Source: Polyangium sp. y55x31 (GTDB lineage Bacteria; Myxococcota_A; Polyangia; Polyangiales; Polyangiaceae). Taken from it: DNA of 64,000 nucleotides. The stretch lies in NCBI RefSeq assembly GCF_029946505.1, contig NZ_JARZHG010000009.1, positions 106,927 through 170,926 on the forward strand, in the 5' to 3' direction. Positions within the stretch are counted from its first letter, which is position 1, and each line of letters starts with the position of its first letter. The notes beneath the pieces are model-generated. The model was not told where the DNA came from. It ran no database searches and was given only the letters and a program-made list of their open reading frames with translations. Position numbers and translations under genes: made by a program. Positions 464-42,949 of this stretch are shown one piece after another.

Positions 464-646
464 CGGAAGATCCTCCTCGATCCATCCTTTGATGCCCAAA
501 GGGCGAGGTGCGTTGCGGGGGCATGACATTTCGTCGAGCAACAGGCGAGGCGCAGACGGAACGGACGAGCGGATGACGGCTTCCGCGCCGCCCGCCCGGC
601 TGGTAAGCTTCTTGCTCGGAATGCCCTGCCTGCAAGGTGTGCTTGA

Positions 647-3600
647 ATGAGGGTCGTTCGTGCGTCGCCCGAGGTGGACGTCGACGTGGAGAGCAGCACG
701 GTGCTGGTCGATCCCGCGCTCGCGCAGACGGAACTCGGCCCGCCTTCGGGGCCCCGGTCGGAGCGTCGCGGCGTACCCCCGTCCCTCGCGGAGCGGTACG
801 AGGACATTCATTTCCTCGGCGAAGGCGGGATGGGGGCCGTCTATCGCGGCCGGGATCCGCGGCTCGGACGCACGGTGGCGCTCAAGCTGCTCAAGGGCAG
901 CGATCCGGAGCTCGGGCGGCGCTTCCTGCAGGAGGCGCGGTCGCAGGCGAAGGTCCAGCACGAGAACGTTTGCCGGATCTACGAGGCCGGAGAGGCCGAC
1001 GGCGAGCCTTTCATCGCAATGCAATACATCGACGGTGAGCCGCTCTCGAAAATGGCTGGACGGCTATCGCTCGAACAACGCGTGAAGCTGATGCGGGAGG
1101 TCTCGGCCGCGGTCCACGAAGCGCACCGGCTCGGGCTCATTCACCGGGACATCAAGCCCGGCAACATCATGGTCGAAAGGAGCGCGGACGGGGACATCAA
1201 GCCCTACGTGATGGATTTTGGTCTGGCGCGGGAGGTCGCGGACAAAGGAGAGACGGTGACGGGGGCGGTGCTGGGGACCCCGGCGTTCATGTCACCGGAG
1301 CAAGCGCAAGGCGACGTACGAGCGCTGGATCGACGCTCGGACGTATATTCGCTCGGCGCGACGCTCTACGACGTCGTCGCGGAGCGGCCGCCGTTCGTCG
1401 CGCCACACACGTGGAAGCTCCTGATGATGGTCGCCTTCGAGGAGGCGCCTGCACTGGGGCAGGTGAAGAAAGGGGTGCCGGCGGATCTCGAGACGATCGT
1501 GATGAAATGCCTGGAGCGAGATCCGCGGCAGCGATACGATTCGGCGCGGGCGCTCGCCGAGGATTTGCAGCGGTTTTTGGACGGAGAGCCGATCCTGGCG
1601 CGGCAGGCGTCGGTGGGGTACGTGCTGTGGAAAAAGGCGCGGAAACACAAGCTCGCGACGGCGGTCTCCGGCGTGCTCCTCGTCGCGGCGCTTGCGCTCG
1701 CCGGCGTGTGGTGGAAGGGGCGGCAGCAGGCGGCAGCCGAGGCGAGGATCGCGCAGGAGCTCGGGGAGCGGGTCAAGGAGATGGAGCTCTTCTTGCGCGC
1801 GGCCTACGAGCTGCCGCTGCACGACGTCGAGCGCGAGCGGGACGTGGTGCGGCGGAAGCTCTCGGCGGTCGAGGAGCGGTTGAAGGAGGCGGGGCGCGTT
1901 GGCGAGGGCCCGGGGCATTACGCGCTCGGGCGGGGATATCTGGCGCTGGGGGATCCGGAAAAGGCGCAGGAGCATCTGGAGAAGGCGGTCTTCGCGGGGT
2001 ATCGATCGCCGGAGCTCGAATACGCGCTGGGGCGGACGCTCGGGGAGCTTTACCGGCGGGCGCTCGCGAAGACCAAGCGGATCACGAACGCGGAGGAGCG
2101 CAAGAAGCGGGAGGCAGAGCTCGCGGCGGCGCTGCGGGATCCGGCGCTCGGGCATTTGAGGGCGGCGTCGGGGGCGGAGATCGAGGCGCCGGCCTACGTG
2201 GAGGGGCTCATCGCGCTGTACGAGGGGAAAAACGAAGAGGCGCAGGCGAAGGCGCGGGAGGCGTTCGAGCAGGCGCCATGGATGTACGAGGCGAAGAAGC
2301 TCGAAGCGGATGCCTTGTTCGCGGAGGGGAGCAAGCACCGGCACGATGCGGCGTTCGACTGGGACAAGATGATGCTGTCGTTTGGCCCGGCGGCCGAGGC
2401 GTACAAGGTCGCGGCGGAGATGGCCGAGAGTGATCCGGAGGTGCATCGGGCGGCGTGTGAGCTGTGGGAAAAGATGGCGCGCGGGACGGAGGCCATCGGC
2501 AAGCGACCGGATCACGAGCTCGACGTGGCCGAGGGTGCGTGCTCCAGAGCGGTGCAGGCGAGCTCGCGTGATGCGGAGGCGCGGGTGCAGCGCGCCCATG
2601 CCATGCATTATCGGTTCTGGGTCGCCAACCAGTCAGGCGCACATTCCCAGAAACTCGAGGCGGCGGCGCTCGAAGCCGTCGAGGAGGCTGTTCGCATTCG
2701 GCCGAACGACGCCTTTGCCCGATATTTGTTGGCGACGACGTTGCAGACGCAGGCGACGGGAAAGTCCTTCCGGGGCGAGCAGGTCGAGACGGGAGAGACC
2801 ATCCGGGCCTACGAGAAGGTGCTGGAGATCGAGCCTCGCTTCACGTGGGCGCTGAACGAGCTCGGGCAGACGTATCTCCTCCAAGCGGAGTTCGATCGAT
2901 TGCATGGGCTGGACCCTCGCCCGTTGCTCGATGGCGCATCGAAGCGATTCGACCAGGCCGTCGCGGTGGATCCGAATTTCACCTTGCCCGTGTTCGGAAA
3001 AATCCGCGCGGCCATTTACCGAGTCGTGTACGAGACCGACCACGGAATCGACGCTCAGGTGAGCCTGTCCACGCTCGCCGACGCCGTCGCGCTGCTCGAA
3101 GAGCGAAAGCTCGGAGGCTTTTTGCCCGTCTACTACGCGGCGAAGTCCGCGCGGGTTCGCGCGGCGTACGAGGACGCGATCGGCCTGGACCCTCGCCCAG
3201 CGATCGAGGCAGGCGTGAAGAAGATCGAGCCCTTCGCGGCGCCGGACACGAATACGGTGTATCCCCTGATGGAGCTCGCCGAGTTCCGGCTGGTCGAATT
3301 CGAGTACATGCTCTCCGCGGGGCTCGAACCTCTCCCCGACCTCCGGCCCCTGCGGGACGCCGTGAAGAGAGCCTCCGAGAAAGACGCGTCGGGGATCGAC
3401 CTTCAGGACCTCACGGCGAGGATGGATCTCCTCGCGATCCTCGCGAAGGTCGAGAAGGGTCAGGCCGACGAGCGAGCGTTCGACGATGCGGCGGCGGTCC
3501 TGGAGCCCGTGATCGCCACGGAGCGAAACGACCCTCGGCCCTACCAGACCCTCGCCCGCATTCACGCAGCAAAGGCAAGATGGCTCGAAGCGCACCGGAA

Positions 3601-3850
3601 GGCGCCGGACACGGTCGTCGCCGTGGGGCTCGACATGGCGAAAAAAGCGCGCGCCATTCATCCACACAACGCGAGGACGTTCTCGACGACGGGAGAGCTC
3701 CTCCTCGTGCGGGCGAAAGCTTCCCGCGGGGAGGATCGAAAGAAAGCTGCGCGCGCGGCGGGCGAGGCGTTCGCGGCAGCGATCCGAGAAAACCCGCGGC
3801 TCGCGGCGGCGCATCAGGCGAACATTCAGGAGGCGAAGGGAATGGAGTGA
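647..3850 (+). CDS. Ser/Thr protein kinase with TM segment and C-terminal TPR-like helical repeat region
   Basis: Hanks kinase motifs are present: GEGGMGAVY, VALK, HRDIKPGNIM, DFG and SPEQ. A TM helix LATAVSGVLLVAALALAGVWW follows, then a ~700-aa helical repeat region. Confidence 0.85.
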   Translation: MRVVRASPEVDVDVESSTVLVDPALAQTELGPPSGPRSERRGVPPSLAERYEDIHFLGEGGMGAVYRGRDPRLGRTVALKLLKGSDPELGRRFLQEARSQAKVQHENVCRIYEAGEADGEPFIAMQYIDGEPLSKMAGRLSLEQRVKLMREVSAAVHEAHRLGLIHRDIKPGNIMVERSADGDIKPYVMDFGLAREVADKGETVTGAVLGTPAFMSPEQAQGDVRALDRRSDVYSLGATLYDVVAERPPFVAPHTWKLLMMVAFEEAPALGQVKKGVPADLETIVMKCLERDPRQRYDSARALAEDLQRFLDGEPILARQASVGYVLWKKARKHKLATAVSGVLLVAALALAGVWWKGRQQAAAEARIAQELGERVKEMELFLRAAYELPLHDVERERDVVRRKLSAVEERLKEAGRVGEGPGHYALGRGYLALGDPEKAQEHLEKAVFAGYRSPELEYALGRTLGELYRRALAKTKRITNAEERKKREAELAAALRDPALGHLRAASGAEIEAPAYVEGLIALYEGKNEEAQAKAREAFEQAPWMYEAKKLEADALFAEGSKHRHDAAFDWDKMMLSFGPAAEAYKVAAEMAESDPEVHRAACELWEKMARGTEAIGKRPDHELDVAEGACSRAVQASSRDAEARVQRAHAMHYRFWVANQSGAHSQKLEAAALEAVEEAVRIRPNDAFARYLLATTLQTQATGKSFRGEQVETGETIRAYEKVLEIEPRFTWALNELGQTYLLQAEFDRLHGLDPRPLLDGASKRFDQAVAVDPNFTLPVFGKIRAAIYRVVYETDHGIDAQVSLSTLADAVALLEERKLGGFLPVYYAAKSARVRAAYEDAIGLDPRPAIEAGVKKIEPFAAPDTNTVYPLMELAEFRLVEFEYMLSAGLEPLPDLRPLRDAVKRASEKDASGIDLQDLTARMDLLAILAKVEKGQADERAFDDAAAVLEPVIATERNDPRPYQTLARIHAAKARWLEAHRKAPDTVVAVGLDMAKKARAIHPHNARTFSTTGELLLVRAKASRGEDRKKAARAAGEAFAAAIRENPRLAAAHQANIQEAKGME

Positions 3851-3892
3851 GCGCGTGTCCGGCAGCGCAGGGACGTCGGACGGAGCGGGCGC

Positions 3893-4819
3893 TCAGGGGC
3901 AAGTCGCGTTGCTCGCCTTCAAGTAGCTGTGAATCGCGTAGGAGCGGTTCGAGCAGCCCTCGAACGTCGAATTCAACGGCTCACTGCAGAAGGCATCGAA
4001 GGTGCTGCAGGTTCCCATGTAGCTGAAGCCGCAGGGCGTATACGTCACGTCACATGCCCGAAAAGTCGCCCCCTCGGCAGAGCTGCAGAACGTCACGTCG
4101 CTACAGATGTACGCATTGAACGCGGGAGAGCTGTCGGTGTTGCTACCCAGCGGCATCGTAGAATCGAACATATTGCCCCACACCGTCGACTCCGGCACCG
4201 TGTAGGGGTAGGCCTCGCTGGCTCGATAGGTGATCTCCGGGTGAGCGCCTCCGAGCAGGATGTCGATCGTCGCGCCGTAGCGGTTGGTGCGCGAAAGGAC
4301 GCAGGCCGTGACCCACCTCTTTTCATCCGTCGTGAGCGCGCGCGTCCTCCAGTCCGGCGCAAGACCGATCTCGCCGTGGTACTGCTGGAACACGGGCACG
4401 GAGACCCCCCCACCCGTCATGTACCCGACAATATGGCCCGCGTCCCCCACGGTGGTCCCCTCGGCCAAGGCGCAACCGATGAGCTTCTCCAGAAACTCGA
4501 CCCTGGCGCCTGCCCACTCACCCGCCGCGCTGGGCGATGGCATGTCGGGCATGCTGGGCAGGACGCCGGAAGGGGCCAGCGCGGCATTACCGATCACACG
4601 GACGGTCCGCTGCACGCCATGATTATGGGCAACCCGATACCGCAAGCCGTTGTTGGTCCCCGGATCGCCACCCGTACCGAGCTCGGCCTCCCCGAGCTCC
4701 TCCTCCTCGGGATCCCAACCGGAGTCCACGGGGTCGGCCATGCAACCCAGGCCATAGAGGCTCATGGCAATGAACACGAACGGCGAAGCACAACGAAGCA
4801 GCGTAGTTCCAGGGTTCAT
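3893..4819 (-). CDS. secreted Cys-rich lipoprotein, hypothetical
   Basis: Signal peptide with lipobox (LYGLGC) and a Cys-rich C-terminus. RBS GGAG lies upstream of the ATG at 4819. A sigma-54-type promoter lies just upstream. Confidence 0.6.
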   Translation of the reverse strand: MNPGTTLLRCASPFVFIAMSLYGLGCMADPVDSGWDPEEEELGEAELGTGGDPGTNNGLRYRVAHNHGVQRTVRVIGNAALAPSGVLPSMPDMPSPSAAGEWAGARVEFLEKLIGCALAEGTTVGDAGHIVGYMTGGGVSVPVFQQYHGEIGLAPDWRTRALTTDEKRWVTACVLSRTNRYGATIDILLGGAHPEITYRASEAYPYTVPESTVWGNMFDSTMPLGSNTDSSPAFNAYICSDVTFCSSAEGATFRACDVTYTPCGFSYMGTCSTFDAFCSEPLNSTFEGCSNRSYAIHSYLKASNATCP

Positions 4820-4855
4820 GAGAAGGGTCTCCTGTCGAAGGTGACGATCACGGAC

Positions 4856-4874
4856 ATTGCACCCGTCGTGCCAG
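4856..4874 (-). promoter_or_regulatory. sigma-54 (-24/-12) promoter candidate for the lipoprotein gene
   Basis: The minus strand reads cTGGCACGacggGTGCAat, with GG-N10-GC spacing and a perfect TGGCACG -24 box. The predicted TSS is ~28 nt upstream of the ATG at 4819. Confidence 0.6.
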
Positions 4875-4893
4875 AGGTCGTCCGGAGGTGATT

Positions 4894-5006
4894 CAGGCCC
4901 GAAAGGCGCGTGAAAGCTGCGTGCACACGAGCCTCGCCCGGACGCGGGGGCCCGAGCGAGGGTCGGCGCGCGTAACGTAGGTACGCGCGTGCGTCATCCG
5001 TGAACG
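4894..5006. repeat. copy 1 of ~115-bp duplicated upstream element, with inner palindrome cgcgcgta-N7-tacgcgcg at 4967-4989
   Basis: About 90% identical to 6943-7058. It lies 20-130 bp upstream of the sigma-54 -24 box of gene 3893..4819. Confidence 0.8.
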
Positions 5007-5060
5007 CTCAGGGGCAGACGGCGTCGTTCATGCGCCCGAAAGAGCGCACGCCGCAGGACC

Positions 5061-6851
5061 TCAGTAGGTCTGTCTGACGAAGACGCCTTGCGTTGCAAAG
5101 CCGACCACGTCCTGCGTTCCATCACCATTGATATCCGCCATCATGCGCGGGTGCATGTCCACGCGCCATCCGAAATCATAACCGAAGCCTTCTACCAGGT
5201 GGCTCGGCAGCTCGAATGAGCTCCCGGTCGAGCGCGAGATATGAACGCCGTTGCCCGCAAAGCCGACCACGTCAGCTTTCCCGTCATTGTCCACATCCGC
5301 CATCATGCGCGGGTGCTGCTCCACGCGCCATCCGACTTGATTGTACCCGAAGTTGCTGACCCAGAGCTGGGGCGTCGTGAAGGAGCTCCCCGTCGAGGTA
5401 GAGACGACCACGCCGTTGTCACCGAAGGCGACGATGTCCTGCTTCCCGTCGCCGTTGACATCGGCCGTCATCCGCGGATGCATGTCCACGCGGTAGCCGT
5501 GGTTGTAACCATAATCTCCGACCCAAAGCGATGGCGTCGAGAAGGAGCTTCCCGTCGAGAGCGCCACGTACACGCCGTTGTTGGCAAAGACGACGACGTC
5601 TTGTTTCCCATCGTTGTTGACGTCGGCCATCATGCGCGGGTGCTGGTCGATGCGATAGCCATGATTGTAGCCGTAATTGGCGAGCCAGAGCGACGGCGCC
5701 GTAAACGAACTTCCCGTCGAGAGCGAGACCACCACGCCATTGTCCCCGAAAGCGACGACGTCCGGCTTCCCATCGTTGTTGACATCCGCCATCATGCGCG
5801 GGTGCTTGTCCACGCGGTAGCCCTGATTCCAGCCATAATCGCCGACCCAGAGTGACGGCGCCGTGAACGAGCTTCCCGTCGAGAGCGAGACCAGCACGCC
5901 TGCATCCCCAAAGCCGACGACGTCCGGCTTCCCATCGTTGTTGACATCCGCCATCATCCGCTCGTGATTCTCGGTGCGCCAGCCGTGGTTGTAATTGAAT
6001 TGGTCCACCCATAGTTCCGCAGCCATGAAGCCGGTCCCGGTGGACCTGGACACGAGCGTCCCCGCATCGCCGAATGCGACGATATCCTGCTTCCCATCGT
6101 TGTTGACATCCGCCATCATACGCGGGTGCTTGTCCACGCGCCATCCTTGAACATAGCCGTACTCCGTTATCCATCGCGGAGTGCCGTACATCTTGATCGC
6201 GCCCTGGATGTCGCTCTCGCTGAGCTTGCCGTTGCCGTTCCACACCGGATTGCAGTAATTCATCACCGAATCCAGATCCCACAGGTTCAGCGTAAGGTCA
6301 CCGTCGCTCCCCTGCTCCTCATCGCACCACGACGGGGTGTCGGGCCGATTCTGCTCGTGAGCGAATCCGAGCGCGTGCCCGAACTCGTGCACCGCGATTG
6401 CTTCGATGCAGAACCGGCGCGAGTTCTGACAGTCCGGGGACCAGTTCTGGAAGGTAAAGTTCAATACCATACCATCCGTTTCGCCGTCGAGATCGGTGCC
6501 GAGGCCATCTGTGTGTGGGCCTTCATCGGAGATCCGGATGCGAATTCCATTCGACGAGCTGGTGCATGTACCCCAGCCATTGAAATCCACCCGCGTGTGG
6601 GCGTCCCACGACGCGAGGACGGCTTGTCGGACCCAGTCTCTCTCGGCTTGAGGCGCCGCGCTGGGGTTTTCCCAGCAGACCTGGACGGACTCTCCGCTCC
6701 ACAACTTCGACGAGGCTACATAAAGCGGGGCCACGTCCGTCTGAACGTTTTCCTCGGCGGAGGGTTCGGCCGGGCCAGAGCAGCCGGTCGACGCGTAGGA
6801 AATGGCAAGGACCGACGCGATGGCAATCGCCATCGAATGATGATGTTTCAT
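5061..6851 (-). CDS. secreted astacin-family zinc metalloprotease fused to an 8-blade FG-GAP-like calcium-binding beta-propeller; lipoprotein signal
   Basis: The astacin signature HEFGHALGFAHEQNRPD is followed by the Met-turn SVMNY. There are 8 tandem ~47-aa repeats (HPRMMADVNNDGKxDVVxFGDxGVxVSLSTGSSF). The start is reassigned to ATG 6851 (MKHHHSMAIAIASVLAISYASTGC lipobox) with an upstream GGAG. Confidence 0.8.
   Translation of the reverse strand: MKHHHSMAIAIASVLAISYASTGCSGPAEPSAEENVQTDVAPLYVASSKLWSGESVQVCWENPSAAPQAERDWVRQAVLASWDAHTRVDFNGWGTCTSSSNGIRIRISDEGPHTDGLGTDLDGETDGMVLNFTFQNWSPDCQNSRRFCIEAIAVHEFGHALGFAHEQNRPDTPSWCDEEQGSDGDLTLNLWDLDSVMNYCNPVWNGNGKLSESDIQGAIKMYGTPRWITEYGYVQGWRVDKHPRMMADVNNDGKQDIVAFGDAGTLVSRSTGTGFMAAELWVDQFNYNHGWRTENHERMMADVNNDGKPDVVGFGDAGVLVSLSTGSSFTAPSLWVGDYGWNQGYRVDKHPRMMADVNNDGKPDVVAFGDNGVVVSLSTGSSFTAPSLWLANYGYNHGYRIDQHPRMMADVNNDGKQDVVVFANNGVYVALSTGSSFSTPSLWVGDYGYNHGYRVDMHPRMTADVNGDGKQDIVAFGDNGVVVSTSTGSSFTTPQLWVSNFGYNQVGWRVEQHPRMMADVDNDGKADVVGFAGNGVHISRSTGSSFELPSHLVEGFGYDFGWRVDMHPRMMADINGDGTQDVVGFATQGVFVRQTY
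5064..6197. repeat. 8 tandem ~141-bp coding repeats (propeller blades) inside the protease gene
   Basis: Near-identical peptide repeats are visible in the translation. Confidence 0.8.
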
Positions 6852-6913
6852 GGGTGTCGAAGCTCCAGCGGGATACTTGTTGGGCCGCGTTGCTCGCGGT
6901 GCGGATAGCCGCA

Positions 6914-6931
6914 GAGCAACCCGCATGCCGA
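6914..6931 (-). promoter_or_regulatory. sigma-54 (-24/-12) promoter candidate for the astacin-propeller gene
   Basis: The minus strand reads tCGGCATGcgggTTGCTc, with GG-N10-GC spacing and a TTGCT -12 box. It lies ~54 nt upstream of the ATG at 6851. Confidence 0.5.
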
Positions 6932-6942
6932 CACGCGAGAGG

Positions 6943-7058
6943 CAGGCCCGAAAGGCACGTGAAAGCTGCGTGCACACGAGCCTCGCTCGGACGCGGGCCC
7001 CGCGCGAGGCTCGGCGCGCGTAACGTAGGTACGCGCGTGCGTCACCCGTGTACGCGGA
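6943..7058. repeat. copy 2 of ~115-bp duplicated upstream element, with inner palindrome at 7015-7037
   Basis: About 90% identical to 4894-5006. It lies between the EBP stop (7070) and the protease promoter. Confidence 0.8.
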
Positions 7059-7069
7059 GCCCGGGGCGC

Positions 7070-8788
7070 TCAGGCCTCGTCGTCCCCCAGCTCCCGAAAG
7101 GGCCCGCCGTCCTCCCCGAGCGCCTTGCAGAGCGCCTCCACCTTCTCCAGCTCACGCCGCAGCATCTTGTGGTGATTGCGCGCCTGCACCTGCGCGCCCT
7201 TCCCAAAAAGCCGGAACGCCGCGTCCTTGCTGCCGAGCCGCTCCACCGCCGTGCCGAGCACGATGCCGCGGAATGCGTCCGAGAGCTCCAGGTCGAGCAC
7301 GAGGCCCTTTCCCTGCTGCCGCTCGGCCTCTTCCACGATCGCGCCCGCCGCGACGCGCAGGTCGTCGAGGGTCGACCTGCGCCCGCTCCCCCGCTCGTAG
7401 CTCAGGGCGCGCGCGAAATGCTTTTCCTCCAGCAAGATCTCGAGCCCTGCCTCGCCCTGCGTCATGAGCGCGAGCGCGTACGCCCGGCGGACGACGTTGT
7501 CGAGCTGCCGCAAATTGCCCGGCCAGCCGTGCTCGCCGAGCAGCCGCTCCGCGCCGGCCGCGATCCGCGCTTCCCCGCCCGGGACCGATTCTCGATGGCG
7601 CCGCGTGGCCATGAAGCGCGCCCATTCCGCGATCTCGTCCCGGCGCTCGTCGAGCGGGGGGATCTGCACCGGGAGCACGTTGATCCTATAATAAAGATCC
7701 TCCCGAAATCGACCGGCCTTCACCTGATCGTACAGGTCGACGTTGCTCCCCACGATGAAACGTACGTTCGCCTGCTGCTCGCGCGCGCCGTCCCCGATCG
7801 GGCGATACGTACGCGATTCGAGGAGCTGGAGCAATCCAGCCTGCGCCTTCAGCGAGAGTTTGTCGATCTCGTCGATGAACAACGTCCCCTTGAAGGCCCG
7901 CGTGATGCACCCGGGCGTGTCGCGCACCGCGCCCGTGAACGCGCCCTTTTTCCAGCCGAAGAGCTCCGCCATTTGCAGCTCCTCGGGCACGGCGATGAGG
8001 TCGAGGACCTCGAAGGGCGCCCCACGCCGGACCGATCGCGCGTGGCACCAGCGCGCGAGGCGCGATTTGCCTGCGCCCGTGGGACCGCCGATGAGCAGGG
8101 TCTCCTCCTGCTGCGCGAAGACGTGGAGCATGTCGATCAAGCCCGCCATGCTCTGGCCCATGACGGGCAAGAGGTCGTCGGTCGCGCCGGTCGCCGCGGG
8201 CCGCGGCGGGAGGGTCGCGAGGTAAGGCGCCGCGAGGTCGGCGAGGAGCTCCAGCGGTTCGTGAATGGCCGGAAAAATGAAATCGTCGCCGACGGCCCTC
8301 GGGCACCCCGCCTCGACCGTGGCCATTCCCTCGATCGCGCCGTGCAGGGTGCGCAGCGGGATCGCGTAGAGGTGGCTCGTGTCGCGGCTCGTCAGCCGAA
8401 GCACGCTGTCCTGACCGGAGAATCCGCCCTCCTGGAACACGTTCGCGGATTCGTTTCGCCACGTCCATACGCGGCTCAGCGGGACGTCGATCGCAATGGG
8501 GCATGCGCGCGTGACGACCCAGCGCCACGCGCTCACGGAGGGCAAATAGTTGATGATCGGCTCGCCGCCGCGCTGCGTATCGTCGAGGAGGACCAATCGC
8601 CGGTAGCCGTCGCCGGGCCGCCAGTGCGCCATGCCGCGGAGGATCTTGCCGCGGCCGGCGAAGCTGCTCTCCGCGAGCGCCGCGAGCGCCGCGTCGAGCA
8701 TCGCGCGCAACAAGGTGTGCGCGGCGTCCTCGAAGGTCCTCGCCTTCCGGAGCCGGTCCACAAAAGCAAGGATTTCCCGCTGGTTCAT
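7070..8788 (-). CDS. sigma-54-dependent transcriptional activator (bEBP) with N-terminal GAF-like sensory domain and C-terminal HTH
   Basis: The AAA+ sigma-54 interaction domain carries the GAFTGA signature, Walker A GGPTGAGKS and Walker B FIDEID. The C-terminus is Fis-type. The start is taken at ATG 8788 (MNQREILAF...), 9 nt after the kinase stop. Confidence 0.85.
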   Translation of the reverse strand: MNQREILAFVDRLRKARTFEDAAHTLLRAMLDAALAALAESSFAGRGKILRGMAHWRPGDGYRRLVLLDDTQRGGEPIINYLPSVSAWRWVVTRACPIAIDVPLSRVWTWRNESANVFQEGGFSGQDSVLRLTSRDTSHLYAIPLRTLHGAIEGMATVEAGCPRAVGDDFIFPAIHEPLELLADLAAPYLATLPPRPAATGATDDLLPVMGQSMAGLIDMLHVFAQQEETLLIGGPTGAGKSRLARWCHARSVRRGAPFEVLDLIAVPEELQMAELFGWKKGAFTGAVRDTPGCITRAFKGTLFIDEIDKLSLKAQAGLLQLLESRTYRPIGDGAREQQANVRFIVGSNVDLYDQVKAGRFREDLYYRINVLPVQIPPLDERRDEIAEWARFMATRRHRESVPGGEARIAAGAERLLGEHGWPGNLRQLDNVVRRAYALALMTQGEAGLEILLEEKHFARALSYERGSGRRSTLDDLRVAAGAIVEEAERQQGKGLVLDLELSDAFRGIVLGTAVERLGSKDAAFRLFGKGAQVQARNHHKMLRRELEKVEALCKALGEDGGPFRELGDDEA

Positions 8789-8796
8789 GCCGGTCC

Positions 8797-9933
8797 TTAG
8801 CGCCCAAGGAGCCCGAGGGCCATCACGATTGCCGCCACCAGGACGACGGCGATCCCGATCCACACAGGCCATCGCCGGGGGCGCGACGAGACCGTCGCCT
8901 CCGTCGGCGCCCGTTCCTCGGCCACCGCGCGCTCGATCATGGCGTACGAACCGCTCTCCACGTGGCTCATGCCCACCTCGCTGGGCGCGTTCCTGCGGCC
9001 GACGAGCATGTCCTCCCGCAGCGCCATGCCTCCCGGCAAGAGGGGCTTCATCGCTTCGAGCATCGCCGCAGCGCTGGAGAACCGTTCTTCACGCGAAAGC
9101 CGTGACGCCCGTTCGAGGAGCGCCTCCACGTCGAGGCCGACCCCCGGCACGACCTCGCGCAACGTGGGCATCGGTTTCGTCGCGATATGGTTGAGCAGCA
9201 AGGGGAACGATTTGAGGTCCGCATGCGGCGGCTTTCCGGTGAGCATCGCGAACAGCGTCACCGCCAGCGAAAACAGGTCGCTGCGTGCGTCGATGCCTTT
9301 CGCGCCGTCGAGCTGCTCCGGCGACATGTAAAGCGGCGAGCCGAGGAGCTGCCCCGTCTCGGTCATGGATAGCTGCGGCGCCGAGAGGGCCGAAGGCGCG
9401 GCGCTCGTGGAAGAATCCGGCGGGAGGCGCCGGATCTTGGCGAGGCCAAAATCGAGAATCTTGACCACGATGGCGCCGCCTTCCCGCCGCGCGAGAAAGA
9501 GATTGCCGGGCTTGATGTCCCGATGCACCACGCCCGCCGCATGCGCCGCCGCGAGCCCCGCGCAAACCTGCGCCGCGATCCGCAAAGCCACGTCGACCGG
9601 CAAGGGGCCGACCCTGTCGAGGAGGGATTGCAGGTCCTCCCCGCGGAGCAGTTCCATGACGAGGAACGGGGCGTCCGTGGCGGGATCCCGCTCGATGTCG
9701 AGCACCTGGGCGATGTGCTCCGACTCGAGCGAACCCGCGATGCGCGCCTCCTGGTCGAAGCGCAAAAGCTCGGGATCCCGCGGGTCGAGGGCGCTCCCCC
9801 GCAGCGACTTGATCGCCACGCGCCGGCCGGTTCGCAGGTTCTTCGCGGCGTAGACCGTGCCTATCGCCCCCTCCCCGAGGACGGCGGAGAGCTCGTATTT
9901 GTCGCCGATTTTCCCCTGAACCCTGGTCGCCAA
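8797..9933 (-). CDS. Ser/Thr protein kinase with C-terminal TM anchor
   Basis: Motifs GEGAIGTVY, VAIK, HRDIKPGNLFL, DFG and SPEQ are present. The C-terminus has the TM helix VWIGIAVVLVAAIVMALGLL. The annotated start is TTG at 9933, and no in-frame ATG is nearby. Confidence 0.75.
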   Translation of the reverse strand: MATRVQGKIGDKYELSAVLGEGAIGTVYAAKNLRTGRRVAIKSLRGSALDPRDPELLRFDQEARIAGSLESEHIAQVLDIERDPATDAPFLVMELLRGEDLQSLLDRVGPLPVDVALRIAAQVCAGLAAAHAAGVVHRDIKPGNLFLARREGGAIVVKILDFGLAKIRRLPPDSSTSAAPSALSAPQLSMTETGQLLGSPLYMSPEQLDGAKGIDARSDLFSLAVTLFAMLTGKPPHADLKSFPLLLNHIATKPMPTLREVVPGVGLDVEALLERASRLSREERFSSAAAMLEAMKPLLPGGMALREDMLVGRRNAPSEVGMSHVESGSYAMIERAVAEERAPTEATVSSRPRRWPVWIGIAVVLVAAIVMALGLLGR

Positions 9934-10001
9934 GGTTGCGCGAAGGTATCGCCATCGCGCGTGGCGGGCAAGGGCTGTGGAGGAGGGCAGGGCGCGAGGC
10001 G

Positions 10002-10877
10002 TTATCTCTTGGCCTTCGCCTTCAGGGCGGCGGCCTGTTCCAGCAGCGCCTTCGCCTGTGCTTCGAGCTGCTCGACGGCCTGCGCCTGGGCCCTCTGCTC
10101 CTCAGCGGCGCGGGCCTCGGCCTCGGCTTCCTCTTCGAGCTTTTTCAGGAGGGCATTCCGCTCTTCGAGCTGGGCGGTGAGCTCGGCGATGGACGTCTTG
10201 ACCTCGTCGATCGTCTCCTCCTGCTCGCGGGGCGGCTCGCGATAAAAGAAACCATCGGCGAAGTCCTGCGGGAGCGCGGGGTTCTGGAAGGGCAGCTTTC
10301 CGAGCCCGCCGTGCGCCTCCTTGCGGGCGGCATTGACCTTGTCGATGAACTGCTTGCGCTTGCCGACGTCGCGGAAATCGCGATTGCTCGCCTGCGCAGC
10401 CTTGCGCAATTGCTCGGCGTCCTTGCCTGCGGAGACGAACTCCTCTGCCTCGGGCGCCAGGGCCACGAGCGCGGGCACGCCGCATTTCGCGAGCGTCTCG
10501 GCCCAATCGCTCATGGAATCGAGCTGCCCGGCGAGGACGGGCCGCCGGAATTTCCCGAGCGGCTTGTTCTTGAAGAGCGCCGTGCGGAGCTGCTTTCGTG
10601 TATTGCCGTCGGTCGTATCGTCGATGGTCCGCGAGACGCGGCCGGCGAAGCCATCGAGCGCGCCGTCGGCCTTGTCGACGGTGGCTTGCGCGCGTGAGAC
10701 GGCATCGAGGATTTCGATTTCTTCGAGGAGGACGAGCTTCCATTCCTCGTGGAGGCCCTGAAAGACAGGCACGTAAACCGCGGCGTGAGGCTCCTGGCGC
10801 GCGCGGGAGAGGGTGTATTGCAGCTCCCGGAGGAGCGTAAAAAGACCGATACGATAGGCAAGACTGCGGGCAGCCAT
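10002..10877 (-). CDS. hypothetical protein with C-terminal Ala/Glu/Gln-rich coiled coil
   Basis: The ORF track ORF is trimmed to ATG 10877 (MAARSLAYRIG...). No recognisable domain was found. Confidence 0.45.
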   Translation of the reverse strand: MAARSLAYRIGLFTLLRELQYTLSRARQEPHAAVYVPVFQGLHEEWKLVLLEEIEILDAVSRAQATVDKADGALDGFAGRVSRTIDDTTDGNTRKQLRTALFKNKPLGKFRRPVLAGQLDSMSDWAETLAKCGVPALVALAPEAEEFVSAGKDAEQLRKAAQASNRDFRDVGKRKQFIDKVNAARKEAHGGLGKLPFQNPALPQDFADGFFYREPPREQEETIDEVKTSIAELTAQLEERNALLKKLEEEAEAEARAAEEQRAQAQAVEQLEAQAKALLEQAAALKAKAKR

Positions 10878-10996: not shown

Positions 10997-12208
10997 TCAG
11001 TTGATGTCGAGGTAAAACGGCCCGAGACAGCAGAACGTCACCGCGCCGATGGCGTTCCGCGTCGCCGCCCCGGTAGGCGTGCCGCCGCTGCTCAGGCATT
11101 CACCGGGCACGTAGGCGAGATCCGTGATCGCCTTGGCGCCGAGGGCCCGGCCAGGGGCGACGATGTTGATGCACTTCTCGTAGCCGGAAGCGAGGCCGCC
11201 CTTCTCGAACTCGGATGCGCAAGCGGCGTCGTTGTAGAGCCTCACCGATCCAACACAACCACTCCCCACGACAGGCCCGCACGCGCACGCCTCGCAAGCG
11301 CGATCGTCGGCCACGTCTTTCGGATACCCCACATACCATGCATAACGATAATTTAGCGGACAGTCCTCCAGCGTGAACTCTCCCCCTCGGTGCACGCAAT
11401 GAAGGTATTCCGGCCCTGGATCCGCGACGCAAGACTTCTCGCGCGAGCCGCACGAATCATCGTCCAGGTTGGCCGTGCACCCGAGCACCGCCGTCTTCCA
11501 CTCGGTCTTCGTCGTGAAGTCCGGCGCCGCCTTCACGAGCTGGCACGGCTCCTCCGTCGTCGGCCCCGGGAGCGGCGAGACCACCACGGATTGCGCACAG
11601 GGCTCCCCGCCGCAATCAGCCCCCGCCGGAAGGGCGTTCATGCTGGTGCACGAGCCGTCCCAACCGGCGGGTCCGTCGAAAGGGACGGATACCGCTCCCA
11701 CTTCCCCGCAGACACCTGCACGCACATCGATCGACGCCGGAAGCTCCGTGCACGTGCCCGACGAGGGCCCGCATTCGCACGGCCCGCATTCGGCCGGCGG
11801 CGCGACGAGGTCCATGTAGAGGCGGAATTGCTCGCTCGATGTGCCCTTCGGACACACGAGCGGAGGATCGCCCTCCTTGGGCGTCGGACCCACCAGGAGC
11901 GCAATGGGCTCTTTGCTCCACAGCCCCGCGTGTTGCCCGCCGCTCGGCACCGGGACGCAACGACCGCCGCCATGCTCACAGCTCGTCGACTGTGGATCGA
12001 TGCCTTGTGGATCGGAACCGGGCAGCCCCGCGTCTTCGTCGCTCGCGTCGGGAGCTGCGTCGGTTCCAGCGTCGATGCACAGCTTTCCCGTTGGGTAGCG
12101 AGGATCCGGATCGCAGTCGCCCCAGGACGCTGCCGGTGCCACGGTGCACGCGCTCGCGAGAGGCACGACAATGGAGGCGACACAAAAAAGAACCTTCCGC
12201 ATGATCAA
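10997..12208 (-). CDS. secreted Cys-rich lipoprotein, hypothetical
   Basis: The signal/lipobox VVPLASAC is present and the protein has >30 Cys. Its start overlaps the stop of the upstream gene in ATGA, indicating translational coupling. Confidence 0.6.
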   Translation of the reverse strand: MIMRKVLFCVASIVVPLASACTVAPAASWGDCDPDPRYPTGKLCIDAGTDAAPDASDEDAGLPGSDPQGIDPQSTSCEHGGGRCVPVPSGGQHAGLWSKEPIALLVGPTPKEGDPPLVCPKGTSSEQFRLYMDLVAPPAECGPCECGPSSGTCTELPASIDVRAGVCGEVGAVSVPFDGPAGWDGSCTSMNALPAGADCGGEPCAQSVVVSPLPGPTTEEPCQLVKAAPDFTTKTEWKTAVLGCTANLDDDSCGSREKSCVADPGPEYLHCVHRGGEFTLEDCPLNYRYAWYVGYPKDVADDRACEACACGPVVGSGCVGSVRLYNDAACASEFEKGGLASGYEKCINIVAPGRALGAKAITDLAYVPGECLSSGGTPTGAATRNAIGAVTFCCLGPFYLDIN

Positions 12209-19983: not shown

Positions 19984-20991
19984 ATGCGAATCACACGCTT
20001 GCTCGCGATCGCCGCGCTCACCGCGGCCGGGTGTACCGCCGACGGCAGGGACCTCTTCGGCTCGCCGAGTCACCCCGGCGCGGGAGGTGAAGGCGGCGCC
20101 GGGGGCAGCGGCGGGATGGGCGGCATGAACGCGTCGTCGTCCTCGTCCGGGAGCACGTCTTCCTCGTCGAGCGCGTCGAGCTCCAGCGCGTCGTCGTCCT
20201 CGTCGTCGTCCTCGTCCGCCTCGTCCTCGTCCGCCTCGTCCTCGTCCGGCGGCGGCGATACCTGTCAGCACGCCGTCTGCACCGTGGGCGATCCGCTCCT
20301 CGACGGCTGCAACGCCTGCGTGGCGCAGGTCTGCGCGACGCAGGAGGGCGCGGGGTGTTGCGAGAACTTCTGGGGCGGCAACTGCGTGGCGCTCGCCGAT
20401 CAGCTCTGCAACGCCGGCTGCTGCGGCAACGGCGAGTGCAACGGCGAGACGTGCGACTCGTGCCCGAACGACTGCGGCGCTTGTTTCTGCGGCGACGGCA
20501 TCTGCAACGGCGGCGAGGACTGCACCTCGTGCGCCGAGGATTGCGGGCCCTGCGCGGAGTGCCCGCACTCGGTCTGCGGCACGGGCGCGGCCCTCGATCC
20601 CGACGTTTGCCGCGCGTCGTGCGTGGACGAGGTGTGCATGCAGGACGCGAACTGCTGCGGCGCGAACTCGAGCGCGCCGTGGAACGGAGCGTGCTCGTAC
20701 CTCGCGGACACGCTCTGCGGCGCGGATCCGTGCATCACGTCGGTGTGCATGGATCAGCCGGAATGCTGCACGACGGGCTGGAACGAGACCTGCGTGGCGG
20801 CGGCGAAGGCGAAGTGCGGGGTGAGCTGCGCCTGCGCGCACTCGATCTGCCAGGGAGGCGGCGCGCTGGATCCGACGTGCAACCCGTGCGCGGCGGCCGT
20901 TTGCAAGGCCGATCCTTATTGCTGCGAGCAGAACTGGGACGGGATCTGCGTCGGCGAGGTCGAGCTCGTCTGCGGCATCAACTGCAATTGA
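19984..20991 (+). CDS. lipoprotein with poly-Ser linker and three tandem Cys-rich modules
   Basis: A strong RBS GGAGGAGTGAGGAC precedes the ATG at 19984. The lipobox is LTAAGC. The repeat pattern is C.H(A/S).C..G.ALD..C..C....C.....CC...W.G.C. Confidence 0.6.
   Translation: MRITRLLAIAALTAAGCTADGRDLFGSPSHPGAGGEGGAGGSGGMGGMNASSSSSGSTSSSSSASSSSASSSSSSSSSASSSSASSSSGGGDTCQHAVCTVGDPLLDGCNACVAQVCATQEGAGCCENFWGGNCVALADQLCNAGCCGNGECNGETCDSCPNDCGACFCGDGICNGGEDCTSCAEDCGPCAECPHSVCGTGAALDPDVCRASCVDEVCMQDANCCGANSSAPWNGACSYLADTLCGADPCITSVCMDQPECCTTGWNETCVAAAKAKCGVSCACAHSICQGGGALDPTCNPCAAAVCKADPYCCEQNWDGICVGEVELVCGINCN

Positions 20992-41029: not shown

Positions 41030-42949
<1,920 letters not shown>

Follow-up and report, generated by a model that had tools for sequence, protein, structure and literature searches.

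In Polyangium sp. y55x31, a 64,000-nucleotide stretch of genomic DNA (hereafter, the window) carries a gene for a Hanks-type Ser/Thr protein kinase (STPK), a gene for a bacterial enhancer-binding protein (EBP) of the sigma-54 activator type, and two genes for predicted exported lipoproteins, one an astacin-type protease fused to a propeller and the other a Cys-rich protein. We consider it likely that these genes belong to a sigma-54 regulon unit centered on a group-III-like EBP, which would control the exported lipoproteins through enhancers located upstream of each target promoter. The domains and motifs of the proteins, the conservation and phasing of the enhancers and promoters, and the synteny of the locus, on which this proposal is built, can all be read from the sequences compared here. 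An initial annotation of the window had described the STPK, EBP, astacin-propeller and Cys-rich lipoprotein genes as four co-directional genes on the minus strand between positions 3893 and 9933, and the open reading frames and Pfam searches agree with this description, positions included. The gap between the STPK and EBP genes, however, measures 8 nt and not the 9 nt first reported.

The duplicated repeat and its promoters

The kinase gene (8797 to 9933, minus strand; 378 aa) is followed by the EBP gene (7070 to 8788, minus strand; 572 aa), the astacin-propeller gene (5061 to 6851, minus strand; 596 aa) and the lipoprotein gene (3893 to 4819, minus strand; 308 aa with 12 Cys). Each of the last two is preceded by one copy of a repeat, for which the initial annotation had given a length of about 115 bp and a perfect inverted repeat, and both features were found again. 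Copy 1 (about 113 bp; 6943 to 7055, minus strand) follows the stop codon of the EBP gene, precedes the astacin promoter and is kept in the sister strains Polyangium sp. 6x1 and P. jinanense, and copy 2 (about 114 bp; 4894 to 5007, minus strand) separates the stop codon of the astacin gene from the promoter of the lipoprotein gene. The copies are 92 to 96% identical over their whole length. Both contain a perfect 23-bp palindrome, CGCGCGTA-N7-TACGCGCG (7037-7015 and 4989-4967), which occurs twice in the window, with 0 occurrences expected. Its center lies 97.5 bp from the -24 GG on the astacin side and 106.5 bp on the lipoprotein side; the distance given initially was about 90 to 100 bp.

Within each palindrome lies a 17-bp dyad, GCGTACC-TAC-GTTACGC, which is a putative site for an EBP dimer (7018 to 7034 in copy 1, and the same sequence at 4970 to 4986 in copy 2). 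A second, distal dyad is found in copy 1 at 7039 to 7055 (GCGTACA-CGG-GTGACGC, with 3 mismatches to the consensus), 21 bp from the proximal one when measured from center to center. Its counterpart in copy 2 (GCGTTCA-CGG-ATGACGC, 4991 to 5007) is degenerate, with 5 mismatches to the strict consensus.

Each target gene also has a predicted promoter of its own of the TGGCACG-N4-TTGCW type, as had been claimed. On the astacin side, the sigma-54-type -24/-12 promoter CGGCATGCGGGTTGCT (6915 to 6930, minus strand) lies 63 nt before the ATG and matches 10 of 12 positions; on the lipoprotein side, TGGCACGACGGGTGCA (4858 to 4873, minus strand) lies 38 nt before the ATG and matches 11 of 12. The pattern YGGCAYG-N4-KTGCW, which was fitted post hoc once both sites were known, has only these two matches in the 64 kb, compared with 0.17 expected from shuffles. 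The astacin promoter is identical in both sister strains, and TGGCAy-N5-sTGCw, with a variable spacer, is kept before lipoprotein-family genes in nine loci of diverged species. A scan for sigma-70 promoters gave no site. Two more sigma-54-like boxes with 10 of 12 matches are present in the window (11647-11662, minus strand, and 20680-20695, plus strand), with no dyads near them, and they are probably chance matches.

In order to place these elements in a wider context, we compared the window with orthologous loci from P. fumosum, P. spumosum, P. aurulentum, Polyangium sp. 15x6 and two metagenome-assembled genomes (MAGs), and with 52 further EBP-family loci obtained from a genome scan with a GAF-domain alignment (loci are cited below by their number, L001 and so forth). 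In the diverged orthologues, the element of about 113 bp is not kept as such, and only arrays of the half-sites GCGTwCC and GGkACGC and the -24/-12 boxes remain before lipoprotein-family genes. A search for tandem dyads of the form GCGTwCC-N3-GGkACGC, 20 to 23 bp apart, gave 11 pairs, with spacings of 21 to 22 bp, in the 1.02 Mb of family loci, while dinucleotide shuffles gave 0.2, an enrichment of about 50-fold. For 10 of the 11 pairs, an automatic scan found the nearest sigma-54-like site within about 170 bp and oriented away from the dyads; for the eleventh, in L002, the nearest site is a chance 9/12 match, and an 11/12 promoter lies about 145 bp off.

Across the fourteen promoters that were tabulated, 72 to 150 bp separate the -24 GG from the proximal dyad upstream of it, and these distances are helically phased (Rayleigh p of about 0.004 at 10.5 bp, n = 14), in a test run on partly related promoters and with a period that was examined after the data had been seen, which has to be counted among the points against the regulon that are weighed below. 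In P. jinanense (L009, around 11790-11835), the astacin-side repeat has lost 24 bp net between the dyads and the promoter, which shifts their distance from 97.5 to 73.5 bp, and the helical phase stays in the observed range. Furthermore, dyads are found upstream of paralogous EBP genes themselves in Myxococcus xanthus and Archangium, and the motif is therefore tied to the EBP family and not to the lipoprotein genes. The conservation of dyads and promoters, together with the enrichment of tandem dyads in EBP-family loci, lends in silico support to the initial suggestion that the repeat carries an upstream activating sequence, that is, an enhancer for the EBP.

Dyads of the same type were also seen at other kinds of genes in loci of distant EBP paralogues. 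In L044 (11832-11947) and L039 (around 11811-11838), they are found at a PAS-LuxR regulator gene just 3′ of the EBP gene, and in L028 (8164-8191) and L035 (8136-8163), at a string of prepilin-peptidase (A24), kinase and EBP genes.

The structure of the repeat could also be explained without an enhancer. Its copies resemble each other from end to end, dyad-promoter spacer included, and the likeness ends 12 to 20 nt short of the -24 box, as one might expect if the segment had recently been duplicated, or if it were a gene-conversion tract or a small mobile element, in each case without any role in regulation. Nevertheless, only two copies exist in the 64 kb, the repeat was found in the loci examined nowhere but at orthologous positions in 6x1 and P. 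jinanense, the two sister strains, and its single metagenome match is an orthologous kinase-EBP contig. Judging from this distribution, the repeat is not a dispersed intergenic element or a miniature inverted-repeat transposable element, and the widespread, unrelated repeat that the initial annotation had allowed for did not materialize. Moreover, the dyads outlast the rest of the element in the diverged orthologues. A duplication devoid of any regulatory role thus seems to us very improbable.

A second alternative is that the repeat works as RNA, be it a terminator, a leader or a small RNA, and not as a DNA enhancer. For instance, each copy starts 15 to 50 nt past a stop codon, and a 10-bp inverted repeat in each copy (CGAGCCTCGC...GCGAGGCTCG) folds as a long hairpin. 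However, this hairpin is no more stable than those of shuffled sequences (z = -0.8 to -1.7), and its region is not kept in the diverged orthologues, with P. jinanense lacking part of the segment just 3′ of it. A terminator scan showed no enrichment of calls and placed no T-tract terminator inside the repeats, and an Rfam scan of positions 3500-10500 produced only a chance-level match. We therefore give hardly any credence to an RNA element in place of an enhancer, and a terminator role would in any case be compatible with one.

The activator and its candidate kinase partners

The EBP can be divided into an N-terminal domain (residues 1-205), an AAA+ domain (212-440) and a C-terminal domain (approximately 470-556), on the basis of Pfam, PDB matches and structural models. 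Its identification as a sigma-54 activator with a GAFTGA loop was borne out, as PF00158 (Sigma54_activat) matches residues 212-374 with E=1e-47, the Walker A and Walker B motifs read GPTGAGKS and LFIDEID, and the best PDB matches are the AAA+ cores of EBPs (E of about 1e-46). In the segment WKKGAFTGA, G282 and F284 are invariant among 60 myxobacterial homologues, and K281, A283, T285, G286 and A287 are nearly so. Full-length homologues are abundant in Myxococcota, and a genome may hold several paralogues of the family: four of the loci come from one MAG, and P. fumosum and Polyangium sp. 6x1 have two each.

The initial annotation had also called the EBP GAF-type, a description that holds for the predicted fold and finds no backing in the sequence. 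Residues 1-210 of the window EBP have no Pfam match, of 28 homologues a single one reaches a score (E=0.013), and a profile built from these 28 retrieved no structure of a GAF domain from the PDB sequences. When the full-length model (pLDDT 86) was used in Foldseek, only AAA+ cores were retrieved, and the N-terminal domain was then modelled alone. The resulting AlphaFold2 model of residues 1-205 (pLDDT 85, pTM 0.83) has PDB matches that, among those listed, are mostly GAF-containing proteins, with E down to 2e-5 and TM of 0.5 to 0.56, including the GAF domains of phytochrome, cyanobacteriochrome, NifA (8jrc) and PDE5A. At the fold level, these matches support a divergent GAF domain and a group-III-like EBP. 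Pfam revealed neither a receiver domain nor a phospho-acceptor Asp in the protein. Across the 60 homologues, H55, D101, H139, C162 and several Arg of the GAF domain are invariant, and residues 123-138 form a conserved Ser/Thr-rich loop that is modelled with low confidence.

The C-terminal 100 residues or so are likely to be a DNA-binding domain. Profile searches of this region in Pfam, NCBIfam and the PDB, like those of the GAF region, brought up nothing usable. The NtrC models TIGR01818 and PRK10923 align up to residues 530-538, close to their own C-termini, and the structural model has four helices at 500-556. In these helices, R537 and N538 are invariant and H539 and K541 near-invariant in the 60 homologues.

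One homologue deserves a separate mention. Upstream of the gene for the full-length M. xanthus homologue (55% identity; L004, 7713-7830 and 9749-10552), tandem dyads and a sigma-54-like box are present, which suggests that this protein may regulate its own gene. The gene is convergent with a heme oxygenase gene, and the best fold matches of the window EBP GAF domain are bilin-binding GAF domains; a heme- or bilin-derived ligand is a speculative idea that these two observations bring to mind.

As for the kinase encoded upstream of the EBP, it matches Pkinase (PF00069, E=8e-40), and its translation contains all the catalytic motifs (VAIK, HRDIKPGN with HRD, DFG and SPE). It has no sensor domain. 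A hydrophobic transmembrane helix occupies residues 353-378, at its extreme C-terminus, so that the kinase is, by prediction, tail-anchored. Orthologues with 51 to 96% identity adjoin the EBP gene in all orthologous loci, although in L006 a lipoprotein gene stands between the two, and the same short tail-anchored type is kept in all of them. In the EBP family as a whole, a same-strand STPK gene lies within 500 bp of the EBP gene in 24 of 53 loci, compared with an expectation of about 5%, a rough figure taken from the 508 STPKs among the 11,599 genes of one Sorangium genome. From the 8-nt gap and this conserved adjacency alone, we infer that a signal could pass from the kinase to the EBP.

A further kinase may belong to the same module. 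The receptor-type STPK-TPR gene (647 to 3850, plus strand), assigned by Pfam, transmembrane prediction and synteny, encodes a kinase domain, one transmembrane helix directly after it and a TPR region of about 700 aa. It is convergent with the lipoprotein gene, and this pairing is kept in all of the orthologous loci that are long enough to show it (L001-L003, L006-L009 and L013), including L007, where there is no EBP within 7-8 kb. The STPK-TPR gene is thus possibly part of the signalling module, and since it falls outside positions 3893-9933, the initial view of a module complete within those limits needs to be amended. We excluded from the regulon a sigma-54-like box, TGGTAAGCTTCTTGCT (601-616, plus strand), that lies 30 nt before the start codon of this gene. 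The box is kept only in the window, P. jinanense and strain 6x1, and it is probably non-functional because its -12 GC is lost in P. fumosum. The window holds yet another Ser/Thr kinase gene (41144-42070, plus strand; about 606 aa, with a transmembrane helix).

Several observations weigh against the regulon that we propose. The astacin -24 box begins with CGGCAT, and the two target promoters agree at only 10 of 16 positions. The distal dyad on the lipoprotein side is weak, with its five mismatches, and the half-site is short and GC-rich in a genome that is itself GC-rich. The C-terminal domain of the EBP has no Pfam HTH_8 match, even at E<=10. In addition, the M. xanthus homologue and one from Sorangium have no adjacent kinase, and the kinase is therefore not obligatory for the EBP family, and the kinases that adjoin distant EBP paralogues have unrelated and varied architectures. 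Finally, L007 holds a lipoprotein gene with dyads and promoter, again with no EBP within 7-8 kb.

This last locus would be easier to understand if the dyads were bound by some other regulator, either an EBP paralogue or an unrelated factor, and if the adjacency of the EBP were incidental. The existence of several EBP-family paralogues per genome could point in the same direction, as the half-site is apparently common to them and cross-talk is possible. Even so, the dyads co-localize with EBP-family genes in at least 10 independent loci, autoregulatory positions included, and the near-invariant R537, N538, H539 and K541 fit a conserved half-site. We hold another regulator to be quite unlikely, and the EBP itself remains our candidate for the protein that binds the dyads.

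A different question is what the EBP responds to. NifA, NorR and FhlA are group III EBPs with a GAF-AAA+-HTH organization, in which control of the ATPase by the GAF domain is to be expected. In the window EBP, this domain resembles that of NifA (8jrc) at the level of the fold only, with about 15% identity and TM 0.5, and the ligands and regulons of the three proteins differ from those considered here. A likeness in logic exists with NtrB-NtrC systems: both have, the window by prediction, co-transcribed kinase and EBP genes and two adjacent dimer sites about 100 bp before a -24/-12 promoter, and activation through oligomerization and DNA looping would be common to them. Where NtrB-NtrC has a histidine kinase and a receiver domain, however, the window module has a Hanks Ser/Thr kinase and a GAF domain.

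Connections between Ser/Thr kinases and transcription have been considered in M. xanthus. Jelsbak et al. (2005) reportedly proposed that the FHA-domain EBPs of this species link its kinome to transcription activators, and Nariya and Inouye are said to have described a Pkn8-Pkn14-MrpC pathway, in which a membrane kinase acts on a second kinase and this one on a transcription factor. The sensory domain of those EBPs is FHA, whereas that of the window EBP is GAF. A gene for an FHA-domain EBP is present in the M. xanthus locus L004, separate from the EBP homologue. The literature searches brought up no account of a GAF-type EBP being paired with, or phosphorylated by, a Hanks kinase, and none that describes the dyad motif or the targets, which is weak evidence given that many subscription papers were not covered.

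Among described systems, the one nearest in kind is PexR, a GAF-AAA+-HTH EBP of M. xanthus that senses peroxide via a His/His/Cys/Asp metal centre (PMC12754779). As with the window EBP, the regulator gene adjoins its targets, and arrays of interrupted dyad repeats precede promoters of the yTGGCACGrnnnTTGCw type (PMC12754779). The differences are also considerable. PexR recognizes CACCG-n6-CGGTG, compared with the putative GCGTwCC-N3-GGkACGC of the window EBP; its targets are ahpC and katB and not exported lipoproteins; it has no partner kinase, in contrast to the STPK found here; and the GAF domain of the window EBP, set against that of PexR, escapes Pfam. The M. xanthus EBP homologue mentioned above was ruled out as being PexR itself, as context, size and motif all differ, and no named Nla gene could be matched to it.

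By analogy with NorR, NifA and PexR, the GAF domain might sense a small ligand, a metal or a redox signal directly, with the adjacent kinase acting elsewhere or only modulating the EBP. The invariant His55, Asp101, His139 and Cys162 (and several Arg) are of the same residue types as those of the Zn/Fe centre of PexR, the partner kinase lacks a sensor domain, and homologues in M. xanthus and Sorangium do without an adjacent kinase altogether. On the other hand, the residues of PexR (H102, H120, C122 and D140) come in another order than those of the window EBP and are spaced differently, and across the EBP family an STPK gene adjoins the EBP gene far more often than expected. We see direct sensing as a serious, if rather unlikely, alternative, and since kinase and ligand inputs can coexist, it might also act in addition to the kinase.

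The target genes and the slot they occupy

The astacin-propeller product was confirmed as a metalloprotease fused to a beta-propeller, in agreement with the initial annotation. It has a zinc site, HEFGHALGFAHE, at residue 155 and a Met-turn, SVMNY, at 195, in accordance with the pattern HExxHxxGxxHE plus SxMxY. The Pfam Astacin match reaches 26.7 bits (cut-off 22.5), but it covers only 23 residues and Peptidase_M10 scores similarly, so the protein is best labelled, by its motifs, a divergent metzincin of astacin type. The propeller, with seven blades, matches FG-GAP_3 (PF13517, E=4e-28) in 6 stretches and has six DVNNDG-type motifs. At the DNA level, seven tandem repeats of 162 nt encode the FG-GAP blades (5043-6147), and as they are 61 to 79% identical, they point to blade amplification within the gene.

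The Cys-rich lipoprotein, in turn, has no match in Pfam or NCBIfam, and PDB profile searches of its family gave nothing usable. The family is large: at E<=1e-3, 1,842 cluster representatives match its domain. Several long proteins of Haliangium and Sorangium (P0209, P0221, P0224, P0246 and P0281) have this domain fused to RCC1-like propellers, fusions that fit with a separate RCC1 target gene in P. aurulentum. The secreted nature of both products, claimed at the outset, agrees with predicted signal peptides that end, by motif, in a lipobox Cys: YASTGC with Cys24 in the astacin-propeller protein, and LYGLGC in the Cys-rich lipoprotein, the Cys26 of which does not vary among 21 family members. 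The target products of the P. fumosum and P. aurulentum loci are likewise predicted to start with a signal peptide that ends in a lipobox Cys.

Both genes occupy a slot of variable content that is flanked by the kinase-EBP pair and the STPK-TPR gene. In the window, Polyangium sp. 6x1 and P. jinanense, this slot contains the astacin-FG-GAP gene and the lipoprotein gene. In P. spumosum and Polyangium sp. 15x6, it contains two lipoprotein paralogues, and in P. fumosum, a gene for an M4 peptidase lipoprotein that is divergent from the lipoprotein gene, with which it has the dyads in common, and that has a box of its own, TGGCACGCGTGCTGCA. In P. aurulentum, the slot is occupied by an RCC1-repeat lipoprotein gene and a lipoprotein paralogue, with dyads and a promoter for each. 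In this last species (L003, around 10183-10198, minus strand), we noted by eye a possible divergent sigma-54-like box, TGGCATCGATCTTGAA, with GA and not GC at -12, which faces a gene for a small Cys-rich Stig1-like protein and would have its dyads in common with the RCC1 gene.

Since the slot otherwise varies between species, the conserved target appears to be the Cys-rich lipoprotein family. Among the orthologous loci, the astacin-propeller gene is found only in the window, L008 and L009, that is, in three sister strains. By this distribution, it is a recent and lineage-specific recruit, and its recruitment coincides with the duplication of the enhancer-bearing segment.

A possible mechanism and its meaning

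Thus, a mechanism can be proposed in which EBP dimers would bind the two adjacent 17-bp dyads, around 100-120 bp upstream of each target promoter, which would lie on the same face of the helix because they are spaced 21 bp. Once activated, the EBP would form an AAA+ ring and loop the DNA, so that its GAFTGA loops could touch the sigma-54 RNA polymerase at the -24/-12 promoter and ATP could be used for promoter opening. The outcome would be that the exported-lipoprotein genes are turned on. Both the binding of the EBP to the dyads and the dependence of the targets on sigma-54 are predictions of this scheme. The ancestral and conserved target would be the Cys-rich lipoprotein family, and in the lineage of y55x31, 6x1 and P. 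jinanense, the enhancer-bearing segment may have been copied before the astacin-FG-GAP gene, which would thereby have entered the regulon. The input would most likely arrive via the GAF domain, and the best candidate to deliver it, by phosphorylation, may be the tail-anchored Hanks kinase, whose gene would share a transcript with that of the EBP and which could itself act below the receptor kinase with the TPR region.

One could go further and imagine that, across the EBP family of Polyangia, this arrangement is a Hanks-kinase counterpart of a two-component sigma-54 system. The receptor kinase, whose large TPR domain would be extracytoplasmic, and the sensor-less tail-anchored kinase would relay an envelope signal by Ser/Thr phosphorylation of the EBP GAF domain, for which the loop at 123-138 is a candidate, and the lipoproteins would act in the envelope, where they might feed back on the TPR sensor. 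In this extended form, the proposal is a tentative one, which we put forward with considerable doubt.

In myxobacteria, a single genome encodes around 50 to 100 sigma-54 activators, and its eukaryote-like kinases number in the hundreds. Against this background, the locus offers a compact and testable case, in that an EBP family can be considered together with a candidate recognition sequence, promoters, targets and a kinase partner found across species. If it is true that the kinase controls the GAF domain, this would be a new type of input for sigma-54 activators. The locus would also single out, as a predicted regulated product, a large family of exported proteins that counts at least 1,800 sequence clusters and is matched by neither Pfam nor NCBIfam, and it may illustrate one route by which a regulon can grow, namely the copying of an enhancer segment before a new gene.

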